NCBI GenBank assembly: GCA_943330745.2
Contig: CALQIX020000002.1
Coordinates: forward strand, 26,909 to 90,908
Source: Lishizhenia tianjinensis
GTDB taxonomy: Bacteria; Bacteroidota; Bacteroidia; Flavobacteriales_D; Crocinitomicaceae
Reading direction: 5' to 3'
DNA: 64,000 nt
Shown: positions 6,674 through 25,325 of the stretch, piece after piece
Numbering within the stretch: position 1 is the stretch's first letter
Layout: each line of letters opens with the position of its first letter
Made by a program: the position numbers and the translations under genes
The notes under the pieces: generated by a model
Databases searched by the model: none
Told to the model about the DNA's origin: nothing
What the model saw: the letters and a program-made list of their open reading frames with translations, nothing else

Positions 6674-7912
6674 CTAAGCGAACGGATTAAATCGTTCTGA
6701 AAGAACTTCTAAGGTCTTAGTATTCATATTACTTCCAAGTACCTTAGGAACCATTCTCGAACAGTGTCTGGACCACAAACCGATTGAGTTAGATCCAGTA
6801 TTTACCAATCCAAGCCAATCTCCTTCTGTGGGATCTTGTAATTGTTGATTTTTACTGATATAATCTCCAGCAAAACATAAAGGACCAGCAATATCATAAA
6901 CAGAGGTGTCAGATTTTTTCAAGTTTCCGTTTCCATCGAAGGTTAAAAAAGTTAGCCCCCGAGGTTTTGAATAGGCATCTCGCATTAAAAAATCTGCTCC
7001 TAAATGTATAAAAATTATTTTTTTATCACCCCTTTTTAATGAGTATTCTATCCGAGAATAAGCATATCCCGTATAAAAATAACACCATTGTCCAAACTCT
7101 GTTATTAATTTGAAATTGAGAATTTCTGGACAGTTTTCAGTTATGGCTCTTGCATAACTTTGCATGTTTGACGGCTGATTTTTTTCCAAAATTTCCGGTG
7201 ACAGCCCACCGCCAATATCTAAGGCTGTTATTTGTCGTTCAATCCCATTTAATTCAAGAGTATTATTTGCTTCAATTGCAAGTTCCACCAAGGACTTTAC
7301 CGCTTCAATTGCACCTTTCAAGTCTGACATGTGACTGCCAGCATGTATATGTAACTGGGTCACAGGGCAACGTATTATTGCATCTATTATTTGCTTTTTT
7401 TCTGTTATTGGCACACCAAATTTTGACTCGTCACTGCTCACGTGATAGAGGTCAGGAGCTCCGGTTTCTATCATCGGATTTATTCGAATACCAACAGTGA
7501 AGGAAGGATTTTTTGGAATCCGTTTTAATTCCTCCAAACTATTTACGTTCAATCGAATACCGGGCAAATGTTGGTTGCAAAAGTCAATTTCTTGTCTTGT
7601 TTTTACAGGTGAATCAAAAATGATTTTAGAATATTCAGCACCTGCGTCAATCGCTAATTGCACTTCTTCAATGGACGCAGCTTCTAAACCAAACCCTAAA
7701 TCAATGATTTTTTTAAGAACTTTGGGTTGTGGATTTGTTTTAATAGCGATGGCATGTAATGTATTTGTTGGAAAACAATCTTTTAAATGGGTTAAATATA
7801 CTTCCAATTGATTCCACGATTGAAAAATTACGGCGGTGTCTTCTTCGGTGATTAAGTTATCTTGCAATGCTTTTTGTAATGCCCAATTTGCTTCTTTCTC
7901 AAGGGGGTTCAT
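6674..7912 (-). CDS. PLP-dependent decarboxylase, fold type III (Orn/DAP/Arg decarboxylase family)
   Basis: Shows a PLP-lysine context (HAIAIKTNP), the glycine-rich DIGGGL motif and GPLCFAGD near the C-terminus. ATGA start/stop overlap with the upstream gene. Confidence 0.8.
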   Translation of the reverse strand: MNPLEKEANWALQKALQDNLITEEDTAVIFQSWNQLEVYLTHLKDCFPTNTLHAIAIKTNPQPKVLKKIIDLGFGLEAASIEEVQLAIDAGAEYSKIIFDSPVKTRQEIDFCNQHLPGIRLNVNSLEELKRIPKNPSFTVGIRINPMIETGAPDLYHVSSDESKFGVPITEKKQIIDAIIRCPVTQLHIHAGSHMSDLKGAIEAVKSLVELAIEANNTLELNGIERQITALDIGGGLSPEILEKNQPSNMQSYARAITENCPEILNFKLITEFGQWCYFYTGYAYSRIEYSLKRGDKKIIFIHLGADFLMRDAYSKPRGLTFLTFDGNGNLKKSDTSVYDIAGPLCFAGDYISKNQQLQDPTEGDWLGLVNTGSNSIGLWSRHCSRMVPKVLGSNMNTKTLEVLSERFNPFA

Positions 7913-9303
7913 GCAAATAATTTAGTAACGGTTTCTTCAATAATTTCAATCATCCGCAAATCATTTTTCGGCTCAAATCTTCGATTCAATAATTGCCTTC
8001 TAACAGAATATGAACCGATTGCTAAGCGAATAAAAGAACGATCACCATATTGTACGGGCTGACCTAAAAACACCCTATTAAAACCATCTAAGCCTGTATG
8101 TTCTGATAATACTAATTCATCAAACAAGGTTTTTAATTCTGAATGATTCAACGCAATACCATTTGCCAGCACCATAAAAGAAACAATACTATCATTTGTC
8201 AATTCCATATTGGGCATAAGTTGAAAGGTATCGCTCTGTGCTAAGCGGCCTGTAACCACTTGATTCCATCTTCTTATCAGTGCGTTTGATTCGTTTTGAG
8301 GAAAAGACATATAAGCTTCCATTTCCCTCAAAGCAACTTCCCATCTGAGGCGTAATCCTTCGTTTTTATAAAGGGTTAAATGCTGTTGAATATTTTTCAG
8401 TGAATTTGGAAAATCATATGCTGAAAATAGTTTAGAAAATTGTTTTGCCGGTTCCCCTGAGACAAGAGTTAATTCTTTTGTCCAATGATGAGGTACTAGA
8501 AGTGCTCCACAAAATGGAGGTGCTTGGTAAAATTTTGACCCCGTTACCATTATCATTACTCCTTTATTGATTAAGTCGTGAATTAGTTTGCGGTCTGTGC
8601 GAAATTGACACATATCAACAACCCACATGATCTCTGGAAAATCATCAATGATTTGTAAATCATCTTTGATCCCAGATTTACTACCAAAAACTAAGTTTCC
8701 AATAATTGGTTCTCCTGGATTTTGTTCAATAATTGAACGAATTGCTTTATTTCTATCTGCAATATGCCCACTGTCTTCTCTGGCGGCAAGATAAAAAACT
8801 TTGGAATCAATTTCTTCTGAAATTTTTTCGCCAAAAGGAATTCGTTCGCTAAATTGATTCCAATCGGAATAGTAACAAAATTCAGCGGCTAATTTGGAAC
8901 CAGAACCCAATTCTTCCGGGCAAGAAACAATGTTTATGATTGGTTTATTTGGTTTTAACATTGCTTGAAATAGCAAGGGTAGATACATCATGTCGCTTCC
9001 GCTTGGTCCATAGTAAACATCGAATTGAATATCCGTGTTTTTCAATAATTCTTGAAGCCGTTCGGTTTGATCTTTTACTATAAATTCAAATTTAGCATCC
9101 TCATAATTTTGAACAAATTCTGTAGCAACCTCAAATCCAAAAGGAGTGAGTGTCCCGCACGTGCAAGAACCACGAGTAAATAATCCTTCAAAATGTAATG
9201 GATGTAAGTTGTATTTATTTGCGTTCGTTTCTGGCTTCAGAAAAATGCGTTCATCACACCCTGAAGTGATGATGTTAAGCAAATTATTTGAGTTTACCTC
9301 CAT
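7909..9303 (-). CDS. putative fold-type-I PLP-dependent enzyme (class-V aminotransferase/desulfurase-like)
   Basis: Order of motifs: GPSGSDMMYLPL ... VVDMCQ (Asp) ... VTGSKFYQAPPFCGALLV (Lys), as in class-V PLP enzymes. The assignment is motif-level only. Confidence 0.5.
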   Translation of the reverse strand: MEVNSNNLLNIITSGCDERIFLKPETNANKYNLHPLHFEGLFTRGSCTCGTLTPFGFEVATEFVQNYEDAKFEFIVKDQTERLQELLKNTDIQFDVYYGPSGSDMMYLPLLFQAMLKPNKPIINIVSCPEELGSGSKLAAEFCYYSDWNQFSERIPFGEKISEEIDSKVFYLAAREDSGHIADRNKAIRSIIEQNPGEPIIGNLVFGSKSGIKDDLQIIDDFPEIMWVVDMCQFRTDRKLIHDLINKGVMIMVTGSKFYQAPPFCGALLVPHHWTKELTLVSGEPAKQFSKLFSAYDFPNSLKNIQQHLTLYKNEGLRLRWEVALREMEAYMSFPQNESNALIRRWNQVVTGRLAQSDTFQLMPNMELTNDSIVSFMVLANGIALNHSELKTLFDELVLSEHTGLDGFNRVFLGQPVQYGDRSFIRLAIGSYSVRRQLLNRRFEPKNDLRMIEIIEETVTKLFA

Positions 9304-9312
9304 GTTTCTGTT

Positions 9313-10410
9313 TTATAACTTTCGATAAAAACGTTTTTTTTCATTCGTTTTTAGACAACACAAAGTTAACCAACAATAATGAGTATCGTGAACTAATTTA
9401 CATTCTAGGCGTTGAAGTTTTGAAATCCAATCTGTTGAAACAAGGTACTCTGCACAAAACTCCATTTCTCCTGCATAATCGTACCGAGTTAAAAAGAGCT
9501 TTAATTCAGTTGTAATTTCTATATTATGCCAAGCAGCCTCTCCAATTCCTCCTAAGTAAATACTTTCATCGGGCAAATTCATTGGTTTTTCATTTGGGAT
9601 ATCTGTTAAGCCAATTTTACTATCTGTAGGAAGATTTTGAGCTTTACTCGATAAAAATGATTCTAGGAGTTTAATAAATAAATCTTTTAAGGCATGATGA
9701 CGTGGCCTCTTATGATATTCACCTTTTCCATTTTCCCAAATTAGAAAACGCCCATCTGAAGCTGCTGCAACGACATTAAAATAAGGGGTGGGAGCTATTG
9801 TTATTGGGGTTTTGAAACGCTTTCTGTATTGCGAATTTGAGTCCCATCCAGCCATCAAAGATTTGGAAACGAATCGAGCACAATTGGAATCTTTTGTTTT
9901 AAATGCATTGTACCGAGTATATCCCAAATCAATAACTGATTTTGCATACGTTAAAAGCTTGATTATGTCTGCATGATAATGAATTGATGCGAACATTGGT
10001 CCATCACCGTGTGTAGCAATTTTTATCTCCTCCAATTTTTGACAAAGTGCATCTAAATTCAGTAATTTTTTATCGTCAGACCATTCCGGAATTATGTTTA
10101 AAACAAGTTTAGGATCAGTTTCTGCAGAACGCGCACGACCAAATCCGAGAGGGGTTATGTATCTGCCAAAGTCAAAATAATGAAATTCATCATCTAAAGC
10201 AACAACCATTGCAGCATGTCCGACCTTAAAATTCACGTTTTTAACAATCTTAGCTTTGCGTAAAACATGCCAAATTTTTTCAGGACCTCGAGCTGTTAAT
10301 TCTGGCCATGCCAATGGAATGACAGCTGAATTTTTATTCCCCGAAAGTTTATCTAAAGTAACTTCGATAGAGTCAGTTATAAGATGAATGGATTGTTTAT
10401 CGGCCCTCAT
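9313..10410 (-). CDS. hypothetical protein with LRAT/NlpC-P60-like H-box and NCxxF motif
   Basis: Has GHAAMVVALDDEFHYFD (His-x11-His), followed ~110 aa later by DSNCARFV, reminiscent of the LRAT-family NCEHF catalytic cysteine. First gene of a three-gene operon. Confidence 0.35.
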   Translation of the reverse strand: MRADKQSIHLITDSIEVTLDKLSGNKNSAVIPLAWPELTARGPEKIWHVLRKAKIVKNVNFKVGHAAMVVALDDEFHYFDFGRYITPLGFGRARSAETDPKLVLNIIPEWSDDKKLLNLDALCQKLEEIKIATHGDGPMFASIHYHADIIKLLTYAKSVIDLGYTRYNAFKTKDSNCARFVSKSLMAGWDSNSQYRKRFKTPITIAPTPYFNVVAAASDGRFLIWENGKGEYHKRPRHHALKDLFIKLLESFLSSKAQNLPTDSKIGLTDIPNEKPMNLPDESIYLGGIGEAAWHNIEITTELKLFLTRYDYAGEMEFCAEYLVSTDWISKLQRLECKLVHDTHYCWLTLCCLKTNEKKRFYRKL

Positions 10411-14555: not shown

Positions 14556-14583
14556 GTTGATTAAAATAAATCTTTCAAACTCG

Positions 14584-16566
14584 ATGCATACCAATCAACT
14601 CATTCACGAATCATCGCCCTACTTATTACAGCACGCACACAATCCTGTTAACTGGGTTCCATGGTCTAAAGATGCCTTAGATTTGGCAAAACAAGAAAAT
14701 AAATTAGTTCTAATAAGTATTGGTTATTCTGCCTGTCACTGGTGCCACGTCATGGAACATGAATGCTTTGAAGACCAAGATGTTGCTGCATTAATGAACC
14801 AACATTTTATCAATATAAAAGTCGACAGAGAAGAACATCCCGATGTTGATCAAGTGTATATGACAGCAGTACAATTGATGACTCAAAAAGGTGGTTGGCC
14901 ATTAAATTGTTTTACTCTTCCGGATGGAAGTCCGGTTTATGGAGGCACTTATTTTCCGAAGGATCAATGGATACATGTTTTAAAGTCGTTGGTGCATACC
15001 ATCCAGAACGATAAAGAAAAAGTATATGACTATGCTGCTAAACTTAAGGAGGGTGTTCAGCAAAGTGAATTGGTGGAAGAACCGAGCGCGATTCAATCTT
15101 GGAATCCTGAGAAATTGCATGAATTGGTCTTGCGTTGGTCTCATTCGTTTGATTCTTCTCACGGTGGACCTACGAGAGCGCCTAAATTCCCCTTACCATC
15201 GAATTTGGAGTTTTTATTGACTTATGGAGTTTGGCAAGAGGATGAAAAATCGCTTGGATATGTTGAGCTTACTTTAGACAAAATGGCAATGGGGGGAATA
15301 TACGATCAATTGGGAGGAGGGTTTTCGCGTTACTCAGTAGATATTTTATGGAAAGTACCTCATTTTGAAAAAATGCTTTATGATAATGGTCAATTACTGG
15401 AAGTGTACGCAAAAGCCTATAAGTACTTCGGAAAAGAGTTATATAAAGAAACGTGCTACGGAATTTTGAATTGGTTGCAACGAGAAATGCTTTCTGATAG
15501 TGGAGCCTTTTACAGCGCTTTGGATGCAGATAGCGAGGGTGAGGAAGGTAAATTTTATTGTTGGGAAGACGAAGAATTAAAGACGTTGCTTGGACAAGAT
15601 TTTGATTGGGTGAAGGACTATTTCAATATCAATCAACTTGGATTTTGGGAAGAGGAAAAATATATTTTACTCAGAAACGAAACAGACGAATCCTTTGCCC
15701 AAAGAAATGGCTGGGAAGTTTCATTTTTTAAACAAAAACTTCAATCTGTTAAAGATTCACTCTTACATATTAGAAATCAACGAATTAAACCAGGTATGGA
15801 TGATAAATGCCTCACCGCTTGGAATGCAATGTTAATTTCTGGTCTCTGCGAGGCCTATGGCGCATTTGATGATGAGTTGTTTGTAATTGCGGCTAGAAAA
15901 ACGGCAACCTGGATTGAAAATGAACAGTTAAAATCGGATTGTACTCTTTGGAGAACACACAAAAATGGGATCTCAAAAATAGATGGTGTACTAGAAGACT
16001 ATGCTTTTGTTATAAAGGGCTTTATCGATTTATATCAAGTTACATTTGAGGAAAAATGGATTGAAATAGCGAAGAATCTCACAGAAACAGTTGAAACCAA
16101 TTTTCAGGATACCCCGACTAAAATGTGTTATTATACCTCAGTGACAACGGAATTAATTGCTCGTAAAATGGAATTAAACGACAATGTCATCCCGGCAAGT
16201 AATTCGGTTATGGCGCATAATTTCCACAGGCTCTCCTATTTTTATAGGAACCCAGCATGGCGCGGATATGCCGAACAAATGCTTGCCAATGTGTATGAAG
16301 GAATGGAACTGTATGGTTCCGGTTATTCGAACTGGGCTTTACTTCTTTTGCAACTCATTGATTCCATGGAAGAAATAGAAATTGTAGGTCTAAATGCGAA
16401 TGAAATAAGACAAAAAACGAACAAAAAGTTCAAAACAGGAACAATTTATTCTGGAGGCGCTCATTTTTTGCTTCCCATTCTGAAAGAAAAGCAAGTGTTA
16501 ACCAATAAAACCATTTTATATCGGTGTAAAGGAGAAATGTGCGATGCGCCGCTAGAGTTTGAATGA
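14584..16566 (+). CDS. thioredoxin-domain protein of the DUF255 / YyaL (SSP411-like) family with six-hairpin glycosidase-like C-terminal domain
   Basis: Shows [24 protein letters not shown] and a CHWCH redox motif. The ATG at 14584 is in frame with the track ORF. Confidence 0.85.
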
Positions 16567-16567
16567 T

Positions 16568-17407
16568 TTAAGGATTACAAAACGAGCAGTACATCGGATC
16601 TTCTACTCGCTTACCGTTGGGGAAATAATCAGTTGAAGTGAACCCACAACAGGAGCATTGAGATTGATGATACAAAGTCGACTGAGTGGGGAAAGAACAT
16701 AACTCGCAAGGCAATCCTTTAAAACTCTCGGTTACTCCAAAACCGGGTGTTTGACATTCTAGGCACTTACTGCTAATTTTCTCCATCAACTTTATTGCTG
16801 CCTTTTGTATGACCTTCATTCTTGATGGATTGTACATGGCACGCATGTCTGTTTCCAAGAAAACAGAACCATATTTTTCCATGCAATCGGTGAAGCATTG
16901 TTTCAAATCTTCGTGGTTATTGACCCCCTTTCGGATATAATCAAAAACCTCCTGTTGATTTTTCACAATTAAAGCATGCTGTGGAAACCCATGCCGCGTT
17001 GCAAATTCCTCTGCCTCGTTCCAATTTTCTATGACCAGACCACCAAAATTCGTTTCTACTGAAAGTTCACGAGCATAAATTTCCAACTTGTTTTTGGTGT
17101 CTATAAAGACCATTAATTCATCATCTGCAGGAGCAAAGAAAAGTGTTGGATGAGGCCCAAATGAACCTTCACTAGCAATTCCTAAATCGCAGGAGTTTTT
17201 TTCCATTGCAGCCAAACATTTATTTCGCAAGGTGGTTAACGCATCATTTTTTCTCTCTACTTCACCACAAAATGTTCCCAATAAATCAGTATCAAAGTTT
17301 TTATCCACGAACCATTTTGAACCAAGGTGCTCTTCCACGAGCGGACCAATGACTTTTTCTTTATGATGCTTGGTTGCTATGATTAATTTCCGGCCTAAAA
17401 AATCCAT
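16568..17407 (-). CDS. conserved hypothetical protein with C-terminal 4x CxxC zinc-ribbon-like region
   Basis: Cysteine pairs CLEC, CELC, CSCC and CSFC fall in the last ~65 aa. It starts 10 nt after the TolC-like gene stop, so it is possibly co-transcribed. Confidence 0.6.
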   Translation of the reverse strand: MDFLGRKLIIATKHHKEKVIGPLVEEHLGSKWFVDKNFDTDLLGTFCGEVERKNDALTTLRNKCLAAMEKNSCDLGIASEGSFGPHPTLFFAPADDELMVFIDTKNKLEIYARELSVETNFGGLVIENWNEAEEFATRHGFPQHALIVKNQQEVFDYIRKGVNNHEDLKQCFTDCMEKYGSVFLETDMRAMYNPSRMKVIQKAAIKLMEKISSKCLECQTPGFGVTESFKGLPCELCSFPTQSTLYHQSQCSCCGFTSTDYFPNGKRVEDPMYCSFCNP

Positions 17408-17416
17408 AAAGTAGCA

Positions 17417-18811
17417 TTAAATCAATTTGGCTAAACTGAAATTTAAACGCAGAAATGATTGCTTTGATTTTGCTATACTTTCAACCCATTTAAGTTTTGC
17501 TTGTATGTATGCCATTTCTCTTGCATTGATTAAAAAAAGGGAACTTTCCCCTGTTTCAAACATTTCTATCTCAGCGTCTAATAATTTTTTAGTGTCGGAG
17601 GTTGATTGCTCGAAAATGGCAACTTGGTCAATTGCATTAGTATACTCAACGATAGCGTTTTTAATTTTATATTCTAAATAGGCTCTACTGTTTTCTAAAT
17701 TATAGTTTTCATCTTGAAGTTTTAGTTGAGTTTTTGCTAATTCTCCCCTTTCTTTTCTCAGTAAAATGGGCATTTCAAACGTTAATCCCCACTTGTAATT
17801 ATTCAGGGACATGTTAGAAAAAGGATTGTTTTGTATGGGTTGATTCAGAAAATTATAATGAATCTCAACTTCTGGTTTTAGTTGTTCTCGTTTGAGTTTT
17901 TTTTCAATTTCGAGACTTTTGATTTTAAAATTTGTAATTTGTAGATACGGGTGATTGGCAACAGCTGAATCAATTTCTTGATTTGTTAAAACAGGACTCA
18001 GTGGATTTCTAATACTGTCAATTGATAGCGGCAATGTGAGACTGTCTAATTCAAGCGGAATCATTTGTTCGCTCCATAGATAGCTTGCTATTTTGTATCC
18101 ACTACTCAAGTATTCTGTTTCAAAATTTCGTAACATAGATTCTCTATTTTGAACTTGAATTTGGGCTTCAACGGCATCTATTTCTGGCCGATCTCCCAGT
18201 TCTGCTGTTCGTTTTACGGCAGTAAATCGTTCATTCGCTAAGCGAAAAGCGTCATCCAAAATTTGCATGGAATGATAGGCCATAAACCAATTCCAATAAG
18301 CATATCCAGATTCATAGATTAGCTCATTGAGTTGTAATTTTTGTTCAAAAAACGTACTTTGATAGTATACTTTTGCTTTAAAAAGTTCAGCTCTACGTTG
18401 ATCGATAAATAGACCCTTGCCTAAATTAAATGATGCTCCCGCATACCAGAGTCCGCTTGGTGGTGTTTTTTCTTGAGGATTTAAAAAGTTACCTTGATTG
18501 GATTCAAACCCACTTTTAACTTCAACACCATACCAGGTTGGCACTTTTAATCCAATGTTCAGTAAATTATAATAAGACGTAGAATTAAAGTTTTTTTGAT
18601 TGGATTGGGCATATGCTTTTGGGTCAAATCCACCTTGAGCAGACAACACCGCTTTTTCTCCTAGTTGCGTTTCAAGTTTGGCTTGCTTGGCAAGTGGGTG
18701 GTTCTTTATCACTACGTCAAAGAATTGTTGGTCAGAAAAACGAATTTGAGCAGTTATCTTATTAGAAAACAAGCCACATACAAAAATAATTAAGCCGAAT
18801 CGCATGCTCAT
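17417..18811 (-). CDS. TolC-family outer membrane efflux protein
   Basis: 464 aa with a signal peptide and two repeated OEP-type halves. 4-nt overlap with the upstream HlyD-like gene. Confidence 0.8.
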   Translation of the reverse strand: MSMRFGLIIFVCGLFSNKITAQIRFSDQQFFDVVIKNHPLAKQAKLETQLGEKAVLSAQGGFDPKAYAQSNQKNFNSTSYYNLLNIGLKVPTWYGVEVKSGFESNQGNFLNPQEKTPPSGLWYAGASFNLGKGLFIDQRRAELFKAKVYYQSTFFEQKLQLNELIYESGYAYWNWFMAYHSMQILDDAFRLANERFTAVKRTAELGDRPEIDAVEAQIQVQNRESMLRNFETEYLSSGYKIASYLWSEQMIPLELDSLTLPLSIDSIRNPLSPVLTNQEIDSAVANHPYLQITNFKIKSLEIEKKLKREQLKPEVEIHYNFLNQPIQNNPFSNMSLNNYKWGLTFEMPILLRKERGELAKTQLKLQDENYNLENSRAYLEYKIKNAIVEYTNAIDQVAIFEQSTSDTKKLLDAEIEMFETGESSLFLINAREMAYIQAKLKWVESIAKSKQSFLRLNFSLAKLI

Positions 18812-20157
18812 TTTTCAGTTTTTTTGGTGGACTTATCTGCTTTAGAATAAAAATCAGGAGGAAAACCATTAATCAAACGCCACAATTCATACCCAACTTT
18901 AACATCGTTTAGCAGAACCATGGTTTTAGCCCCGCCTCCTACGCGCAATTGCTTTGGCCAGGGGTGATCTTTTTCATCTGGAACAACCAACACTCTAAAA
19001 TTGCCGTCTTCCCCTGCAAAATTATCGACAGCTAAAATCTCCCCACCAAAAGTCCCAAAACTTTTACTTGGCCATCCTGAAAACACAATCGCTGGCCATC
19101 CATCAAACTGAACACGCACATGTTGTCCTTTTTGCACAAGGGGAAGATCTAGAGGTCTTATAAATAATTCGAGCGCTAAATCATAATTTGAAGGCATAAT
19201 GGTAGCAATAGCATCCCCTTGTTTTATTGTTTCACCAATACCACTAGACAGAATTTTGGTAACCACGCCATCTTGAGGAGCCAAGATAAAATACATTCCA
19301 TTCCGAACGGAATAGTTGACTACTTGTGTTTGAAGTTTGGTGACATCTATTTCTGCATCGTACATATTTGAAAGTGCAGAAAATTTATCGGACTCCGCTT
19401 TTGAAACCTCATCCTTAAATTTGGCTCCGATAGAATTTAATGCAAGTTTTGCATCAATAATATCGTTTTTGCTTTGAAGGTATTTCTGCTGTGTTGTAAT
19501 TTGATTTGCTGTTGTTCTTTGAAAGGCCAATTTTTTTGCTTCAAGTTCAGTTTGTGATTTAAGCTTTTCTTGTTTTAATTTTTCAAATCGATTGTATTGT
19601 TGCTCAGCAATTTTATTATTCTCAACAGCTGTGACAAATTCGATACTGTCCGATTTTACTCTTAATTGGGCCTGTTGCATTTTTAATTGAGCTTGTTGCA
19701 ACTGTAATTGGCCGTTTTCTAGTAATGCGTCCACCCGATTGTCAAGCGAGTTGATTTTATCCTCATAAGACAAAACTGAAAGTTCTTTATTTTTTAATTG
19801 TGATTGGGTTCTTCCGATTAAATTTGGGTCAAAATATTCCTCCTTGATTTCAGAAAGGTATAAAATAGTATCACCCTTCTTGACAATATCACCATCTTTA
19901 ACAAACCACTTTTCAATTCTACCTGAAATCATAGTATTTATTGTTTGTGGGCGCTGTTCGGGACGCAATGCTGTGACTTTTCCATTTGATTGAATATTCT
20001 GAGTCCAAGGCATAAAAAGTAAAATAATAAGCACTCCGAATAGTATGGAAATAGCAACGATCAACTTCCGTGACGATGATTTATTCTCAACTCGGTTATA
20101 AGACGTTAATTCGTGTGAATTAAGTAAGACTTTATTTTGCGGCGATAAATTTAACAT
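18808..20157 (-). CDS. HlyD-family periplasmic adaptor (membrane fusion protein)
   Basis: N-terminal TM anchor, lipoyl-like segment (GDIVKKGDTILYL), a long coiled-coil rich in Q/L, and a beta-barrel C-terminus. Confidence 0.85.
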   Translation of the reverse strand: MLNLSPQNKVLLNSHELTSYNRVENKSSSRKLIVAISILFGVLIILLFMPWTQNIQSNGKVTALRPEQRPQTINTMISGRIEKWFVKDGDIVKKGDTILYLSEIKEEYFDPNLIGRTQSQLKNKELSVLSYEDKINSLDNRVDALLENGQLQLQQAQLKMQQAQLRVKSDSIEFVTAVENNKIAEQQYNRFEKLKQEKLKSQTELEAKKLAFQRTTANQITTQQKYLQSKNDIIDAKLALNSIGAKFKDEVSKAESDKFSALSNMYDAEIDVTKLQTQVVNYSVRNGMYFILAPQDGVVTKILSSGIGETIKQGDAIATIMPSNYDLALELFIRPLDLPLVQKGQHVRVQFDGWPAIVFSGWPSKSFGTFGGEILAVDNFAGEDGNFRVLVVPDEKDHPWPKQLRVGGGAKTMVLLNDVKVGYELWRLINGFPPDFYSKADKSTKKTEK

Positions 20158-21851
20158 GATTTCGTGTGATTAGAATATGTTTCAAAGTTTCCGATATATA
20201 CAATTTCACCCTTTTTAATTTCAATTATTTTATCAGAAAGAGCATGAATTTTTGGGTCTTTGGATACTATTAATGTGCTACAATGTGGAAGGGAAAATAG
20301 GGAGTCGACCACAAGCTTTTTATCGCTTTCATTTAATCCTGATGTTGGCTCCTCAAGTAAAAGTAGTTTCGGGTTTCTACTTAGGGCTCTTGCCAAAAGA
20401 ATTTTCTTTTCTATTTCAGCTGGAATTAAATATGAATCTGGATTTATTTCCGCTTCGAATTTATTAGGCATTGAATCCACAAACTCACTCATTCCTAATT
20501 GGTGGGTAATGTTTATTATTTGATCAAAAGGGATATTCGGGTCATAAAAAGATATATTTTCATGAAAGGTTCCAAAAAGTAATTTATCTTGGGCTATTAA
20601 TGTAGACGTAACTCTTCTAAGCGATTCAATCGTTAGGTTTTCGATGGGTATGTTATCAATATTAATAGTTCCTGTTTGTTTTTCATATATTCCGAGTATT
20701 AACATAAAAAGTACATTGCTCGAAACACTGGAGTCTGAAATTATACTCACTTTTTCATTCGGAACCACATCAAAAGAAATGTTTTTTAAAATCGCATTAC
20801 TAAATTCATTTGATTCATAATTCATGTTTTTAACTGTAATTTGTAGTCCTGAATTTTCGGATGTCAATTTATTCCCCTCCGCCTTGTCATCTAGAGAGAT
20901 ATCGGATACTTGACCTATTTTTTCAATTGCGGTTATTACATCATAAACTAAATCGAGGTTTAAAATGATTTTTTCTACCGATGAAAGGACAAGGACAATA
21001 ATAATTTCGGATGCCACAAATTGTCCAATATTCATTTGTTGATTAACTACTAAAACCCCTCCTAAAATCAATAGGCATAATGTAATGAGCACCTTAAAAA
21101 GCACAAGGTATTTATATTGAGTTACCAAGATTTTAAAATGATTTTTTCTAGCATCTAAATAATCATTCAGTAATGAATCCGTTTTGCGCAATTGTGATTT
21201 AGAATCAGTCATTTTAAATCCGGCCCTAGACATATTAATTTCGCTCAACCAATTTGCTATTTTGTACTTAATAGAGGATTCTTTCAAACTTGTGGAATAT
21301 CCAGCCCTTGATGTAAATCGGATCAGTAAGAACAACAAGGTTAATAAACTTAAGCCAAAAAAAATGAAGAAACTATGGTAAAAAGCCAACAAACCTAGTC
21401 CAAAAATTATCTGTAAGGAAGCAGCCATGAAATCAATCAGTAATTTGGAAATTGATTTTTGAATAGTTAATGTATCAAAAAATCGAGAACTCAATTCAGG
21501 GGAATAAAATCTTCGTATTGCTTCCATTTTAAATTGTGGAATGCGACACGAAAAATCAAATGCAGAACGCGTAAAAATGCGTTGTTGTAAATTCTCCATA
21601 ATCCTGAGTTGAAGAATATTCATGATGCCTGAAATACCAATAGCAACAACCACTAATCCAACAAGAAGAAACCACGAAGCACTTAGTTGACCTAATTGTA
21701 TAAAATTGATGATCATCTGAATTCCCAGTGGAAGACCAAGGGAGAGAACTCCACTAAAAACAGCAAACAAATAACTATTTCTAATTTCAATTTTGTCTGG
21801 TTTAAGTAAATTCCAAACACGAGTAACTATAAAATCTGGGGCTCTATTCAT
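20151..21851 (-). CDS. ABC exporter-type TMD-NBD fusion with a degenerate (probably non-catalytic) nucleotide-binding domain
   Basis: Six-TM ABC_membrane-like N-terminal half. The NBD fold is recognisable (Q-loop TLIAQDKLLF). Walker A is IISDSSVSSNV (no GK[ST]), the signature is LIPAEIEKK instead of LSGGQ, Walker B is LLLLEEPTSGL, and the H-loop is SKDPK. Confidence 0.75.
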   Translation of the reverse strand: MNRAPDFIVTRVWNLLKPDKIEIRNSYLFAVFSGVLSLGLPLGIQMIINFIQLGQLSASWFLLVGLVVVAIGISGIMNILQLRIMENLQQRIFTRSAFDFSCRIPQFKMEAIRRFYSPELSSRFFDTLTIQKSISKLLIDFMAASLQIIFGLGLLAFYHSFFIFFGLSLLTLLFLLIRFTSRAGYSTSLKESSIKYKIANWLSEINMSRAGFKMTDSKSQLRKTDSLLNDYLDARKNHFKILVTQYKYLVLFKVLITLCLLILGGVLVVNQQMNIGQFVASEIIIVLVLSSVEKIILNLDLVYDVITAIEKIGQVSDISLDDKAEGNKLTSENSGLQITVKNMNYESNEFSNAILKNISFDVVPNEKVSIISDSSVSSNVLFMLILGIYEKQTGTINIDNIPIENLTIESLRRVTSTLIAQDKLLFGTFHENISFYDPNIPFDQIINITHQLGMSEFVDSMPNKFEAEINPDSYLIPAEIEKKILLARALSRNPKLLLLEEPTSGLNESDKKLVVDSLFSLPHCSTLIVSKDPKIHALSDKIIEIKKGEIVYIGNFETYSNHTKSC

Positions 21852-22525
21852 TTTTTAATTGCTTTAAAAACTAAGTCTACATAAAAAGATTCAACCATGT
21901 CAATGCTATGATGTGAGTTTGTTAATTTGGGTAAATGATCAGCAAAAAACCGTTGTTGGTTGCTTCCTTCAATCATACTGGATACTAACATATTTGGGTA
22001 AGGATAGTTCTCGTTTATTTCTTTTATTATTTCAACAATAGAACTCACTATTGATTTATAAACAGAAAAAATACCTGATTTATTATCTGCGTCAACCTCC
22101 TTCGTAATTACAACTTTTGATGATTCATTAATTGCAAGTTGTTTTAATTTTTGTTCATTCTTCAGTAATGAATCTTTAGTGGGGTTTGGAAGACCTGTTA
22201 GCACATGAATGGCTTTTTTTAACTTTTCCTCTGGAGAATTTATATTCTTAGTTTCGAAAAGCAAGCGGGTTGCAATGCACCCCCAATACCAATTTACTAA
22301 GTACAATAAAAGTTTGTTTTTGTTTTCAAAATAACGGTAAATAGAAGCTTCAGTGGTTGCAATTTCCTTGGCTAATTTTTTAAAAGTGAAGTGCTCAAAA
22401 CCGAGTTGGTCAATTAAATTGATTGACCCATTTAGTATTTTATTTCCTAATTCAGAAGTTATCGGATCTTTAATAAACAAATGAATATTTACCGGAACCC
22501 GTATCGATTGATAAAACTGCTGCAT
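21848..22525 (-). CDS. TetR/AcrR-family transcriptional regulator
   Basis: N-terminal HTH (FTFKKLAKEIATTEASIYRYFENK). First gene of the efflux operon, with 4-nt overlaps throughout. Confidence 0.85.
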   Translation of the reverse strand: MQQFYQSIRVPVNIHLFIKDPITSELGNKILNGSINLIDQLGFEHFTFKKLAKEIATTEASIYRYFENKNKLLLYLVNWYWGCIATRLLFETKNINSPEEKLKKAIHVLTGLPNPTKDSLLKNEQKLKQLAINESSKVVITKEVDADNKSGIFSVYKSIVSSIVEIIKEINENYPYPNMLVSSMIEGSNQQRFFADHLPKLTNSHHSIDMVESFYVDLVFKAIKK

Positions 22526-22539
22526 AAAAGTAATTTATG

Positions 22540-22547
22540 CAAAATTA
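22540..22547 (-). promoter_or_regulatory. candidate -7 box of the tetR-ABC-HlyD-TolC operon
   Basis: Plus strand caaaatta equals minus-strand taattttg, 15 nt upstream of the tetR ATG. Confidence 0.45.
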
Positions 22548-22562
22548 ATAGTAATACTATTA
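22546..22562. promoter_or_regulatory. 17-bp perfect palindrome, candidate TetR operator
   Basis: taatagta-a-tactatta has 8-bp arms around one central base. It abuts and overlaps the -7 box just upstream of tetR. Confidence 0.5.
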
Positions 22563-22606: not shown

Positions 22607-23779
22607 TTACTCATTTTTCTTCCCCACAAAACGCGGTAGAATCCAAGCTCCAATAAACAAGTAAGGAAAATAAGAAATTAATCTCCAGATAACTGCCATT
22701 CCAGCAAGCAATAGTGCTGAACTGGAAAAAGAGATGAGCAATTCACCAAAAGCATACTCAGCAACTCCGCTAGCACCGGGTGTTGGGCTCACGAGCATAA
22801 ACAACCAAAGCACGAATTGTTTTCCCAAAACCAATGCATGGTCGTACAATGACAAGTTCAAAAAGGCTTGAAGTATGGAATTTATTACCAAGTAACGAGA
22901 AATCCAACTTCCGCAGGTAACTAAATAAACTTTAATCCAATTCTGGATGGGTTCTTTCCGCATTTCTGATGAAGTAGTGATAATGTCGTTTCCTGTTTGT
23001 TCTGCGGCTACTTTCCATCGTTTTAAAAAAGGGAGTGAAAATAATCCACCAAGTAATTTTTTGGATAACTGCGGCCAAACAAAAATGGCAAGGAAAAGTA
23101 ATATAGCAGCAAGTGCAATGAGTGAATATCCAGACCAAAAAACAACTTCTATTGCACCTGAGCCCCCAAAATGAGTGGGAAACAAATCCACATGATTGAT
23201 GAATAGAAAAGTAATTGGTATCATCATTACATAGAATAAGTTATCCATCATTGTCGATATTATTACAATAGCAGTTGACCTTCCCAATGCGATTTTCTCT
23301 TTATTTAAAATGAACATTGCAACCGCAGCACCACCAACAACACCCGGGGATAAGGCAGAAGCAAATTCCCATAACATGATTACTGAAAAGCTTTTTTTCC
23401 AACTTAACTGCTGATTTGTCAATAACCGTATGCGCCACATGTAAAAAAAATCACGCCCAACCATGCATATAAGCGCGATGAATAGCCAAAAAAAGGTTGC
23501 CGAAGACCAATTAATTTCAGATAAAACATCGGTAATTGATTCTATTTTGTAGTCGCCATCACTGGATAATGTAAAATCATAGGTGTTTGATTGGTCTATT
23601 ACTTGATTTTTGTTCCCATCAATCCAGCGATGTGTTCCTTCACCTTGTTTTACTTTAATAAATCGAATTTCATTTAGAGAACGATGCAACATGAATGCGG
23701 CTACCAATACCCCCAAAGCGATAGCTGTCCATATTTTCCATTTCTGTAAAGAATTTTTTATAACATCTGAATCATTCAT
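22607..23779 (-). CDS. polytopic membrane protein, lysylphosphatidylglycerol-synthase TM region / flippase-like (UPF0104) family
   Basis: About 8-10 TM segments, with the characteristic late motif SPTPGASGVAEYAF. Confidence 0.65.
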   Translation of the reverse strand: MNDSDVIKNSLQKWKIWTAIALGVLVAAFMLHRSLNEIRFIKVKQGEGTHRWIDGNKNQVIDQSNTYDFTLSSDGDYKIESITDVLSEINWSSATFFWLFIALICMVGRDFFYMWRIRLLTNQQLSWKKSFSVIMLWEFASALSPGVVGGAAVAMFILNKEKIALGRSTAIVIISTMMDNLFYVMMIPITFLFINHVDLFPTHFGGSGAIEVVFWSGYSLIALAAILLFLAIFVWPQLSKKLLGGLFSLPFLKRWKVAAEQTGNDIITTSSEMRKEPIQNWIKVYLVTCGSWISRYLVINSILQAFLNLSLYDHALVLGKQFVLWLFMLVSPTPGASGVAEYAFGELLISFSSSALLLAGMAVIWRLISYFPYLFIGAWILPRFVGKKNE

Positions 23780-25325
23780 TTTTAGGTGCTAAATCAACTT
23801 TGATCTCCCAATTTGCCCGCACTTTTGTTGGTGTAGTGAACCACATTACTTTTTCGGGAGTTGTTCTTGTTTGCATTTTCCATCCATCCCAACGATAGTT
23901 GTTATTGATATCGCGGATTACTCTAAAATTATATTCACCCGGTAACAAGTCTTTAAAATCTAATTGTTTTTTATTTCCGCTATGTTGACTTTCAATAACC
24001 TTATTGTTAAAAATAAGTTGCACCAAGTCCGTTGTGTCTAATCTTGAAACATCCACCTGCAAGACGCCTAACTCCCGATCAGAAAAGCGTGTAATCGCTG
24101 TTTTAAGTCGCGCAGATTTCAACCCTGTCTTTCCTGTAACAGCGCCTTGCTCTACAGTAAATTCAATTTCTTTTGAATCTGTTTTCACCAACTTAATTTT
24201 TAATTGATTGGCAGAAAAATCAATTTGTTCGATTTTAACAGTGTCTTTTGTTGATTTATCTAGAACGAGTATTTTGCTTGAATCAACCGCAGTGATAATA
24301 TCTGAAATTTCAAATACGAAAGAACTATTCATCTTAACCCAATTTGCATTACTTTTTATCTTTAGCGATTTAATTTCCTCACTATTGGAAACAATTTTAA
24401 TAGAATCCAAAGATCCATTTTCGGGTTGAAAAAACAACTTTGTACTCGGGGTTTTTATCGAGTTAAAAGGAAGCAACAAACTATCTTTACCCACCCAAAT
24501 AAGTTCATCATTTTTGATTAAAGTTTCATTTTGGAAATAAAACGCATCGTTTACTGTATGGGTGTTCAGCGCAACACTAACTAATCCGGGCTCGATAAAG
24601 GCAGCACTTCGAATTGGTTTTTCAAATTCAGTTATTGCTAGCCGAAGCGGAATCGTATCAGTTATACTATCTTTGATTACTAATTCTTCTGTTCGAAAAG
24701 CAACGCGCTCGGTTGAATCGTATTTACCGTTGCTATTTGCATCCTCCCAAGACATTGCGGCATATTTTCCCGGCTTGATGAATGAAAACACGGCCGTTCC
24801 TTGATCATTTGTTTTTTGCAAGTATTTGGGAGTTTTGTTCAGTGTGTCAAATAGTCCTAAAAACAGTCTTTTTACCGGCCGAGCAGTAAAGGCATCAACT
24901 ACCTTTGTACTATAATAGGAGGAGTCTAATGTGTTTCCAGTAGAAAAAACAAAGACCATTAACGAATCATTTCCTTCATTGATATCTTTAATGGCGCTAT
25001 TAAAAAGCAATTGATAAGTAGTATTTGCTTGAAGTGAATCTAGAAATTCAACCCGTAATTTTTTGCCGATATTGGTCGATTTTATTCGCGCATGATTTGG
25101 GGCGATGGATATGGTTGTTTGTGGATTCGATAACTGGAAATACTCATCGAATTGAAATTCTATGGTGTTTTTATTGAAATTAGTTGATCCATTTTTTATA
25201 GTAGATTGAATTATTTGCGGTGCTGTGGTATCTTTTGCTCCACCGTCAATCGTTCCGAGTTGCGCACAACTAAGTAGAAGAGTGCATAATCCAAAAATTA
25301 TAATACTGTACCTAGCCAATCGCAT
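23772..25325 (-). CDS. lipoprotein with N-terminal bacterial Ig-like (SbsA/Big_5-type) domain
   Basis: Lipobox LLLSC, followed by DTTAPQIIQSTIKNGSTNF...FQFDEYF, typical of Big_5 domains. Confidence 0.6.
   Translation of the reverse strand: MRLARYSIIIFGLCTLLLSCAQLGTIDGGAKDTTAPQIIQSTIKNGSTNFNKNTIEFQFDEYFQLSNPQTTISIAPNHARIKSTNIGKKLRVEFLDSLQANTTYQLLFNSAIKDINEGNDSLMVFVFSTGNTLDSSYYSTKVVDAFTARPVKRLFLGLFDTLNKTPKYLQKTNDQGTAVFSFIKPGKYAAMSWEDANSNGKYDSTERVAFRTEELVIKDSITDTIPLRLAITEFEKPIRSAAFIEPGLVSVALNTHTVNDAFYFQNETLIKNDELIWVGKDSLLLPFNSIKTPSTKLFFQPENGSLDSIKIVSNSEEIKSLKIKSNANWVKMNSSFVFEISDIITAVDSSKILVLDKSTKDTVKIEQIDFSANQLKIKLVKTDSKEIEFTVEQGAVTGKTGLKSARLKTAITRFSDRELGVLQVDVSRLDTTDLVQLIFNNKVIESQHSGNKKQLDFKDLLPGEYNFRVIRDINNNYRWDGWKMQTRTTPEKVMWFTTPTKVRANWEIKVDLAPKNE

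Follow-up and report, generated by a model that had tools for sequence, protein, structure and literature searches.

TolC-type tripartite pumps are classed by the energy source of their inner-membrane component, which is ATP for the ATP-binding cassette (ABC) transporters and the proton-motive force (PMF) for those of the resistance-nodulation-division (RND) and major facilitator superfamily (MFS) types. Here, we use computational evidence throughout to describe an operon of a freshwater, Crocinitomicaceae-like flavobacterium, found in a 64,000-nucleotide stretch of contig CALQIX020000002.1 (hereafter the window, meaning the whole stretch that was analysed), which encodes a TetR-family regulator, an ABC-fold protein with a fused transmembrane domain (TMD) and nucleotide-binding domain (NBD), a HlyD-type membrane fusion protein (MFP) and a TolC-like outer-membrane factor (OMF). 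An earlier note on this DNA had suggested that the ABC scaffold might be put to a non-canonical use with the MFP and OMF, and this is what the conserved replacement motifs, an omega of ~0.10, a family lacking the signature motif and orthologues with no NBD at all now argue for. We put at about 0.6 the probability that the operon encodes a TetR-regulated, envelope-spanning tripartite exporter whose ABC-fold inner-membrane subunit no longer uses ATP.

Relationship to described systems

By fold and gene neighbourhood, the window protein belongs with the ABC exporters of type I secretion systems (T1SSs) and the peptidase-containing ABC transporters (PCATs), exemplified by HlyB/HlyD/TolC, PrtD, PCAT1 and ComA, but it fails most of the catalytic features of membership and every curated cut-off. 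It shares their type IV fold, with PCAT1 (8vox), PrtD (5l22) and HlyB (8dck) as the best Foldseek matches, while its best NCBIfam matches are the NHLP bacteriocin and T1SS ABC models and ComA is the sole PDB sequence match of its TMD. The partnership with a membrane-anchored HlyD-type adaptor and an OMF is also the same. Unlike these exporters, the window protein has no N-terminal C39 or C39-like domain, starting ~20 residues before the first transmembrane helix (TM1) with no such match in Pfam, and its ATPase motifs are lost save for the catalytic Glu and the Q-loop Gln. It scores 149 bits against a cut-off of 853 for TIGR03796 and 126 against 510 for TIGR01842 (PrtD), and its operon is under TetR regulation, a mode of control usual for small-molecule efflux but not for protein secretion. 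Database entries call the homologues 'ABC transporter ATP-binding protein' or 'bacteriocin exporter with peptidase domain', names that do not fit a protein lacking both an ATP-binding loop and a peptidase domain.

The SLiPTs (SbmA/BacA) are proton-driven via a glutamate ladder and descend from full-length ABC transporters that lost the NBD (PMC13316013). The likeness to the window family would lie in an ABC type IV membrane domain working without ATP, and the window family likewise has NBD-less members and invariant transmembrane carboxylates. The origins are nevertheless independent, the window family matching PF00664, having PCAT-like relatives and lacking TM0 helices; with no SbmA_BacA or ABC_membrane_2 match in Pfam, the window protein is not a SLiPT. 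Its NBD is still attached, and whereas SbmA is a stand-alone importer, the window system presumably exports through an MFP/OMF duct. The SLiPTs have also lost their coupling helices, whereas the intracellular loop motifs NRFFD and ESxYKY of the window family are kept even in its NBD-less members.

A further point of comparison is provided by the degenerate heterodimers (TM287/288, TmrAB, BmrCD, TAP1/2 and CFTR), which likewise deviate from consensus at the signature, the H-loop and the catalytic Glu; their degenerate site has been described as serving in structure or regulation (PMC7756269). These proteins always retain one consensus, hydrolysing site and bind ATP at both, whereas a homodimer of the window protein would have no competent site. 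The functional analogue is EmrAB-TolC, which combines a PMF-driven inner-membrane transporter with an anchored adaptor of the HlyD/EmrA type and an OMF, but EmrB is an MFS protein and not of the ABC fold. The truncated membrane domain of LmrA (LmrA-MD) reportedly acts as a secondary transporter; this is an engineered truncation, whereas the case of the window family would be natural and conserved. Transport by MsbA has been reported to be proton-coupled (PMC4979069). In the literature consulted (full text, with reviews of tripartite pumps and of degenerate ABC sites), we found no account of an ABC exporter in which both sites are dead, nor of HlyD and TolC as partners of an ABC domain that lacks the NBD; the T1SS-like genes with SecA_DEAD of PMC4452313 come from other phyla and make up a different system.

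Loss of the ATPase motifs from a retained NBD fold

The motifs of the NBD were placed by a residue-by-residue phmmer alignment to the NBDs of ABCB1/ABCB4, which gives the following features for the ABC protein.

21851..20151, minus strand: ABC TMD-NBD protein, 566 aa, type IV exporter TMD plus degenerate NBD
20154..20831, minus strand: degenerate NBD, residues 341-566, from the alignment to ABCB1/ABCB4
20712-20738, minus strand: Walker A, residues 372-380, canonical GSSGCGKST replaced by SDSSVSSNV, with no Gly and no Lys
20415-20429, minus strand: signature, residues 475-479, canonical LSGGQ replaced by LIPAE
20349-20366, minus strand: Walker B, residues 496-501, canonical ILLLDE replaced by LLLLEE, Asp changed to Glu and catalytic Glu kept
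20256-20267, minus strand: H-loop, residues 529-532 (VSKD), canonical His replaced by Asp/Lys within SKD
D-loop: canonical SALD replaced by SGLN
Q-loop: Gln kept (Q421)
A-loop: aromatic residue kept (Y345)

Walker A, the signature and the H-loop His had all been called lost in the earlier note, and the alignment agrees, with SDSSVSSNV, LIPAE and SKD at the respective positions. The same claim for Walker B and the catalytic Glu stands for the first, in which Asp has become Glu, and falls for the second, which is still present. No intact Walker A or LSGGQ was found elsewhere in the 566-aa protein by regular expression, there is no intact second copy of Walker B, and the profile alignment likewise places no intact motif at another position.

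The fold of the domain, in contrast to its motifs, is retained as the earlier note had described. PF00005 (ABC_tran), for which the cut-off is 25 bits, scores 41.6 bits and is matched along its entire length (profile positions 1-137 of 137). In an AlphaFold2 (AF2) model, with a mean pLDDT of 75 and ~80-89 in the NBD, the P-loop region is shrunk to a two-residue turn and a helix runs from residue 375. The top Foldseek matches are the PCAT1 core, TM287/288, MsbA, PrtD and HlyB, with a probability of 1.00 and TM-scores of 0.55-0.68 over the listed matches, among which are PCAT1, TM287/288, Sav1866 and MsbA.

Read at the level of sequence, then, the NBD is unable to form a canonical ATP site and a homodimer would be without a competent one; neither ATP binding nor ATP hydrolysis is predicted. 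The open reading frames (ORFs) of the operon include no second ABC gene, again as previously noted.

Conservation of the degenerate domain

The closest homologues, taken as the 120 best database matches at 50-70% identity, come mostly from metagenome-assembled genomes of freshwater Crocinitomicaceae, and 119 are full length (>500 aa). In these 119, the Walker A position reads [IV]SDSS[LVS]S[ST]N, the signature position reads [FLV][IL]Px[DE][IV] and Walker B follows hhhhE[EDN], the variants in the clade being EE, ED and EN and, in a few members, DE. A tree based on TMD columns alone recovers the Crocinitomicaceae clade with dead motifs as monophyletic with a support of 99 (this and the other trees are provisional, being made with FastTree on quick alignments).

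The one informative pair for dN/dS, two clade members with usable divergence, gives values of 0.097 (NBD) and 0.030 (TMD); a comparison of the window with the metagenomic copies nearest to it yields too few substitutions for an informative value. Since the NBD has a dN/dS of 0.097 and its replacement motifs are conserved, the dead domain is, by this measure, under purifying selection that is ~three-fold looser than on the TMD. Mean column conservation follows the same order, at 0.80 for the TMD versus 0.54 for the NBD in the close clade and 0.60 versus 0.40 in the superfamily, which is the reverse of the usual ABC pattern.

Motif loss across the Bacteroidota

A scan with one genome per species returned at least 597 Bacteroidota loci of the family, and the motif and neighbourhood counts given here are for the best 80 of these, with the denominator for the OMF limited to loci with enough flanking sequence. 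The 80 come from the Flavobacteriales, Cytophagales, Chitinophagales/Saprospiraceae and Sphingobacteriales, and their cultured genera include Tenacibaculum, Olleya, Flavobacterium, Salegentibacter, Pontibacter, Roseivirga and Flavilitoribacter. None of the 80 has an LSGGQ signature; a canonical DE at Walker B is found in 3 and the H-loop His in ~5, and Walker A is intact in 60. The Q-loop Gln, listed in the earlier note among the retained segments and indeed present in the window protein, occurs in 27 and so is not a conserved feature of the family. As to gene context, HlyD lies directly downstream of the ABC gene in 73/74 loci, an OMF follows downstream in 68/68 and a homologous TetR lies upstream in 54/75, with an additional canonical NBD within 5 kb at a single locus of the 80.

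Orthologues that are 38-44% identical to the window protein have the same TetR-ABC-HlyD context. They keep Walker A, have lost the signature, the H-loop and usually the Q-loop, and read hhhhED or hhhhEE at Walker B; the survey of orthologues proposed in the earlier note thus separates close relatives, which share the dead motifs, from those at ~40% identity, in which Walker A survives without signature, H-loop or canonical Walker B. A library of 1.84 billion representative proteins contains 1414 sequences with E<1e-30 to the ABC protein, the best 150 of which show the same motif pattern with many independent erosions of Walker A, and a 203-tip tree requires at least 44 changes in the strict Walker A state. 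The distant relatives, from other classes, are 28-32% identical, 700-800 aa long and carry an unassigned N-terminal extension; Walker A, the DE of Walker B and the H-loop His are present in them, and the signature and Q-loop are gone. With canonical exporters as the outgroup, they branch closest to the root of the tree. Because distant orthologues keep Walker A and are already without signature, H-loop and canonical Walker B, the window copy represents, as far as these comparisons go, the end of a family trend, and its clade the far end of a family-wide motif loss, rather than an isolated gene in decay.

An N-terminal cytoplasmic extension of 150-190 aa is found in ~40% of superfamily members (for example P0128, P0130, P0149 and P0152; loci L042-L052). 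In the longer relatives, even a limit of E<=10 gives no Pfam match for it. Its location, where PCATs carry their C39 peptidase and HlyB its C39-like domain, raises the possibility of a C39-like domain that has diverged strongly.

Orthologues with a truncated or absent NBD

In three genomes, the orthologue is 334-340 aa long, matches PF00664 only and ends just past TM6, with HlyD and then the OMF directly downstream. In two genomes of the window's own GTDB family it is 536-555 aa long, with a C-terminal domain that is unrecognizable to Pfam.

L061 3991-5004: NBD-less orthologue
L062 4099-5103, minus strand: NBD-less orthologue
L063 3984-5003, minus strand: NBD-less orthologue
L064 4001-5611: NBD-truncated orthologue in front of HlyD and OMF
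L065 4003-5667: NBD-truncated orthologue in front of HlyD and OMF

In L061 and L062, an 8-nt overlap joins the end of the TMD ORF to the HlyD ORF, comparable to the 7-nt ABC/HlyD overlap in the window, and no NBD gene lies within 4 kb of the NBD-less orthologues. As the NBD-less forms nest inside NBD-bearing clades on the tree, the loss of the NBD is derived. All truncated and NBD-less forms keep the TMD hallmarks of the family. The existence of such forms suggests that the NBD is dispensable for its core function.

Beside the NBD-less pump of L062 (genome G179) there is a 1027-aa open frame at 6893-9976 on the minus strand, with ACR_tran (the C-terminal half of AcrB) and OEP repeats, which represents either an RND::OMF fusion or, as an effect of the ORF choice, a read-through across two neighbouring genes.

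Acidic residues of the membrane domain

The membrane domain matches Pfam ABC_membrane (PF00664) at 22 bits, under the cut-off of 28 bits, and has in the AF2 model the six long helices of a type IV exporter TMD. Its conserved, family-specific acidic residues are as follows.

20892..21851, minus strand: transmembrane domain, residues 1-320
21594-21596, minus strand: E86 on TM2, 100% conserved in the superfamily
21006-21008, minus strand: E282 on TM6, 98% conserved in the superfamily
20973-20975, minus strand: E293 on TM6, 95% conserved in the superfamily
20940-20942, minus strand: D304 on TM6, 96% conserved in the superfamily

Two further polar residues specific to the family, S192 and K195, are also 100% conserved in the superfamily. 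The three glutamates E86/E282/E293 read EEE in 79/80 loci, and none of the genome's four canonical exporters has an acidic residue at these three positions; in ComA the aligned residues are L, N and E. E282, E293 and D304 are spaced by 11 residues, ~three helical turns, along one face of TM6, the helix that lines the pathway in type IV exporters.

A possible mechanism and its alternatives

In the exporter that we favour, the 566-aa protein would most likely form a homodimer in the inner membrane and dock with the membrane-anchored HlyD-type adaptor, which would lead to the TolC-like outer-membrane duct. Transport would be energized, or at least gated, within the conserved membrane domain, for which the most plausible energy source is the PMF, acting via E86 on TM2 and E282/E293/D304 on TM6 in the manner of the SbmA glutamate ladder. 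The dead NBD would probably persist as a dimerization, scaffold or regulatory module, and the TetR repressor would sit on a palindrome abutting the -7 promoter box, to be released when a small-molecule substrate is present. A bolder interpretation, which we hold only tentatively and at somewhat under even odds, is that a large Bacteroidota family of tripartite exporters is seen partway through a natural shift in which an ABC primary pump becomes a secondary transporter, using the PMF via the acidic ladder and keeping the NBD as a vestigial scaffold. The stages of NBD loss would then run from motifs partly intact, through Walker A alone left and all but the catalytic Glu gone (the window), to a domain first truncated and then deleted.

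Several observations weigh against an exporter that has given up ATP for protons. Most members of the family keep a perfect Walker A, and so nucleotide binding still matters in much of it and the mechanism may differ between subclades. The catalytic Glu is present in the window protein, and clade members L072 and L074 have LLLLDE; the strong purifying selection on the dead NBD, moreover, implies some unspecified role. Proton coupling is proposed from conserved carboxylates and by analogy, and E293 is also Glu in ComA, a canonical PCAT, making the ladder not wholly specific to the family.

Of the alternatives, the idea that the ABC gene is on its way to becoming a pseudogene, in an operon without function, would fit the alteration of every classical motif, and is effectively refuted: the full-length ORF is conserved in more than 100 cluster representatives at 50-70% identity, the clade is monophyletic, dN/dS is low in both domains (0.03 in the TMD, 0.10 in the NBD), the start/stop overlaps between the genes are preserved and the putative promoter and operator are conserved. 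A partner encoded elsewhere, allowed for in the earlier note, could restore hydrolysis if one of the genome's other TMD-NBD exporters paired with the window protein; four such exporters exist, all intact and on other contigs, and heterodimeric ABC exporters with a single degenerate site are common (PMC7756269). These four, however, are MsbA/SmdA-like, unlinked to the operon and outside the pump family, which has one copy per genome and, as the neighbourhood counts show, next to no canonical NBD nearby. Because the window subunit lacks both P-loop and signature, both composite sites would be crippled in any heterodimer, whereas the known degenerate heterodimers keep one fully canonical site; family-specific TMD residues argue for a homodimeric interface, and orthologues exist that have no NBD to contribute. 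A heterodimer with a distant exporter is thus unlikely, and we would give very little weight to one of the four supplying the ATP hydrolysis.

If no ATP is used, the ABC-fold dimer might be a passive or facilitated conduit, a gated inner-membrane entry port to the HlyD/OMF duct with no energy coupling in the TMD, through which an endogenous metabolite, lipid or peptide leaves down its own gradient. The missing ATP site and the NBD-less orthologues are both compatible with such a port, and the sequence proves no coupling to any energy source. We nonetheless find it doubtful, as TetR-controlled MFP/OMF systems are typically active pumps (PMC8277102), invariant intramembrane carboxylates at helical-turn spacing suggest ion coupling over a simple pore, and an ungated channel through both membranes would be costly for the cell. 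The conservation of the replacement motifs themselves, the purifying selection on the NBD and the presence of Walker A in most of the wider family, which suggests an ancestral ligand-dependent regulation, would also be expected if the Ser-rich SDSSxSxN loop and the IPxE motif formed a new site that gates or powers transport, its possible ligands being a nucleotide bound in another pose, a metabolite carrying a phosphate and the N-terminus of HlyD. This we consider improbable, given a loop with an Asp and no Gly or Lys, a P-loop modelled by AF2 as a shortened two-residue turn with a helix from residue 375, and NBD-less and NBD-truncated orthologues that point to a domain dispensable for core function.

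Should the favoured reading hold, its interest lies in an ABC-fold component that, although unable to use ATP, has been conserved by selection together with its HlyD and TolC partners over hundreds of Bacteroidota genomes. If it pumps actively, it would follow SbmA/BacA as a second, independent instance of an ABC membrane domain that functions as a secondary transporter, and would be the first among exporters and among tripartite machines, and a PMF-driven ABC fold would add a new energization class of TolC-dependent pumps to those of the ABC, RND and MFS types. With members ranging from a partly intact NBD to none, the family also opens an old question, how closely alternating access depends on the ATPase in ABC exporters, to direct tests by comparative biochemistry.

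Operon structure and regulation

The remaining genes of the operon, and the control elements proposed for it, are as follows.

22547..22561, no strand: probable TetR operator, palindrome AATAGTA-T-TACTATT with 7-bp arms, from sequence and conservation
22540..22547, minus strand: Bacteroidota-type -7 promoter box TAATTTTG, abutting the palindrome, with the tetR ATG 14 nt downstream
22525..21848, minus strand: tetR, TetR-family regulator, 225 aa, PF00440 at 38.7 bits
20157..18808, minus strand: HlyD/EmrA-type MFP, 449 aa, N-terminal TM anchor, Pfam HlyD_3, HlyD_D23 and Biotin_lipoyl_2
18811..17417, minus strand: TolC-like OMF, 464 aa, signal peptide, PF02321 OEP at 101.8 bits in two repeats
17407..16568, minus strand: DUF6671 protein, 279 aa, PF20376 at 307.6 bits

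Read from the sequence, tetR and the ABC gene overlap by 4 nt (ATGA), the ABC and HlyD genes by 7 nt (ATGTTAA) and the HlyD and OMF genes by 4 nt (ATGA), in keeping with the overlaps of 4-8 nt given for a tetR-ABC-HlyD-TolC operon in the earlier note; the gap between the OMF and DUF6671 genes is 9 nt, where 10 had been stated. On the genes alone, these overlapping start and stop codons and the domain assignments point to co-transcription of an inner-membrane transporter, a periplasmic adaptor and an OMF, as in a tripartite efflux pump. The MFP scores 89 bits with the NCBIfam model type_I_hlyD, under its cut-off, and also matches the EmrA/EmrK family; its sequence has no match in the PDB. It is better conserved than the ABC protein, at 40-53% identity as against 38-43%.

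The palindrome AATAGTAWTACTATT is also found upstream of tetR in the orthologous loci L006 and L010, and the predicted TetR-binding sequence of the window is AATAGTATTACTATT. The -7 box, for which the Bacteroidota consensus is TAnnTTTG, has its counterpart in TAAATTTG in L006 and TATATTTG in L010. Palindrome and box are thus kept in orthologous loci whose ABC protein is only 51-58% identical, and we infer that they are the operator and the promoter, respectively. A scan for sigma-70 promoters and terminators, which does not cover Bacteroidota promoters, gave no more sites than shuffled sequence, and tRNA and Rfam scans of the window were empty.

Control by a TetR protein suggests a small-molecule substrate, and no candidate for a substrate gene was seen in the operon. 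The regulator was also considered as a clue to that substrate; its matches in the PDB are confined to the DNA-binding domain, with FadR-type regulators best, weakly, and we draw no inference from them.

Neighbouring genes

The last gene in the list had been described as encoding a Zn-ribbon protein. The protein belongs to DUF6671, and its C-terminus does carry the pattern CxxC...CxxC...CxCC...CxxC, four Cys pairs of the Cys4 type; a search of the PDB gave no significant match, with a best E-value of 0.15. The gene is directly downstream in the close relatives L006, L054, L058, L060, L067 and L078, is absent in L008 and L010, and is found within a few kb, in variable position and orientation, in 6/80 loci, including distant lineages (Crocinitomicaceae and Flavobacterium among them). 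Adjacent only in close relatives and variably placed elsewhere, it was rejected as a core component of the pump. Its recurrence near the pump may reflect a loose functional linkage or conserved synteny.

Two further neighbours flank the operon. Converging on its 3' end, at 14557-16566 of the window on the plus strand, is a gene for a 669-aa thioredoxin-domain protein that appears ordinary; it is conserved in L006 and L054, and homologues in relatives carry the Pfam domain Thioredox_DsbH. Upstream of tetR, at 22607-25325 on the minus strand, a 390-aa membrane protein of the LPG_synthase_TM type and a 517-aa lipoprotein of the Big_5/DUF2141 type are encoded by a pair of genes with a 4-8-nt overlap; their Pfam assignments are taken from homologues in L058-L060, and the pair is syntenic in close relatives.

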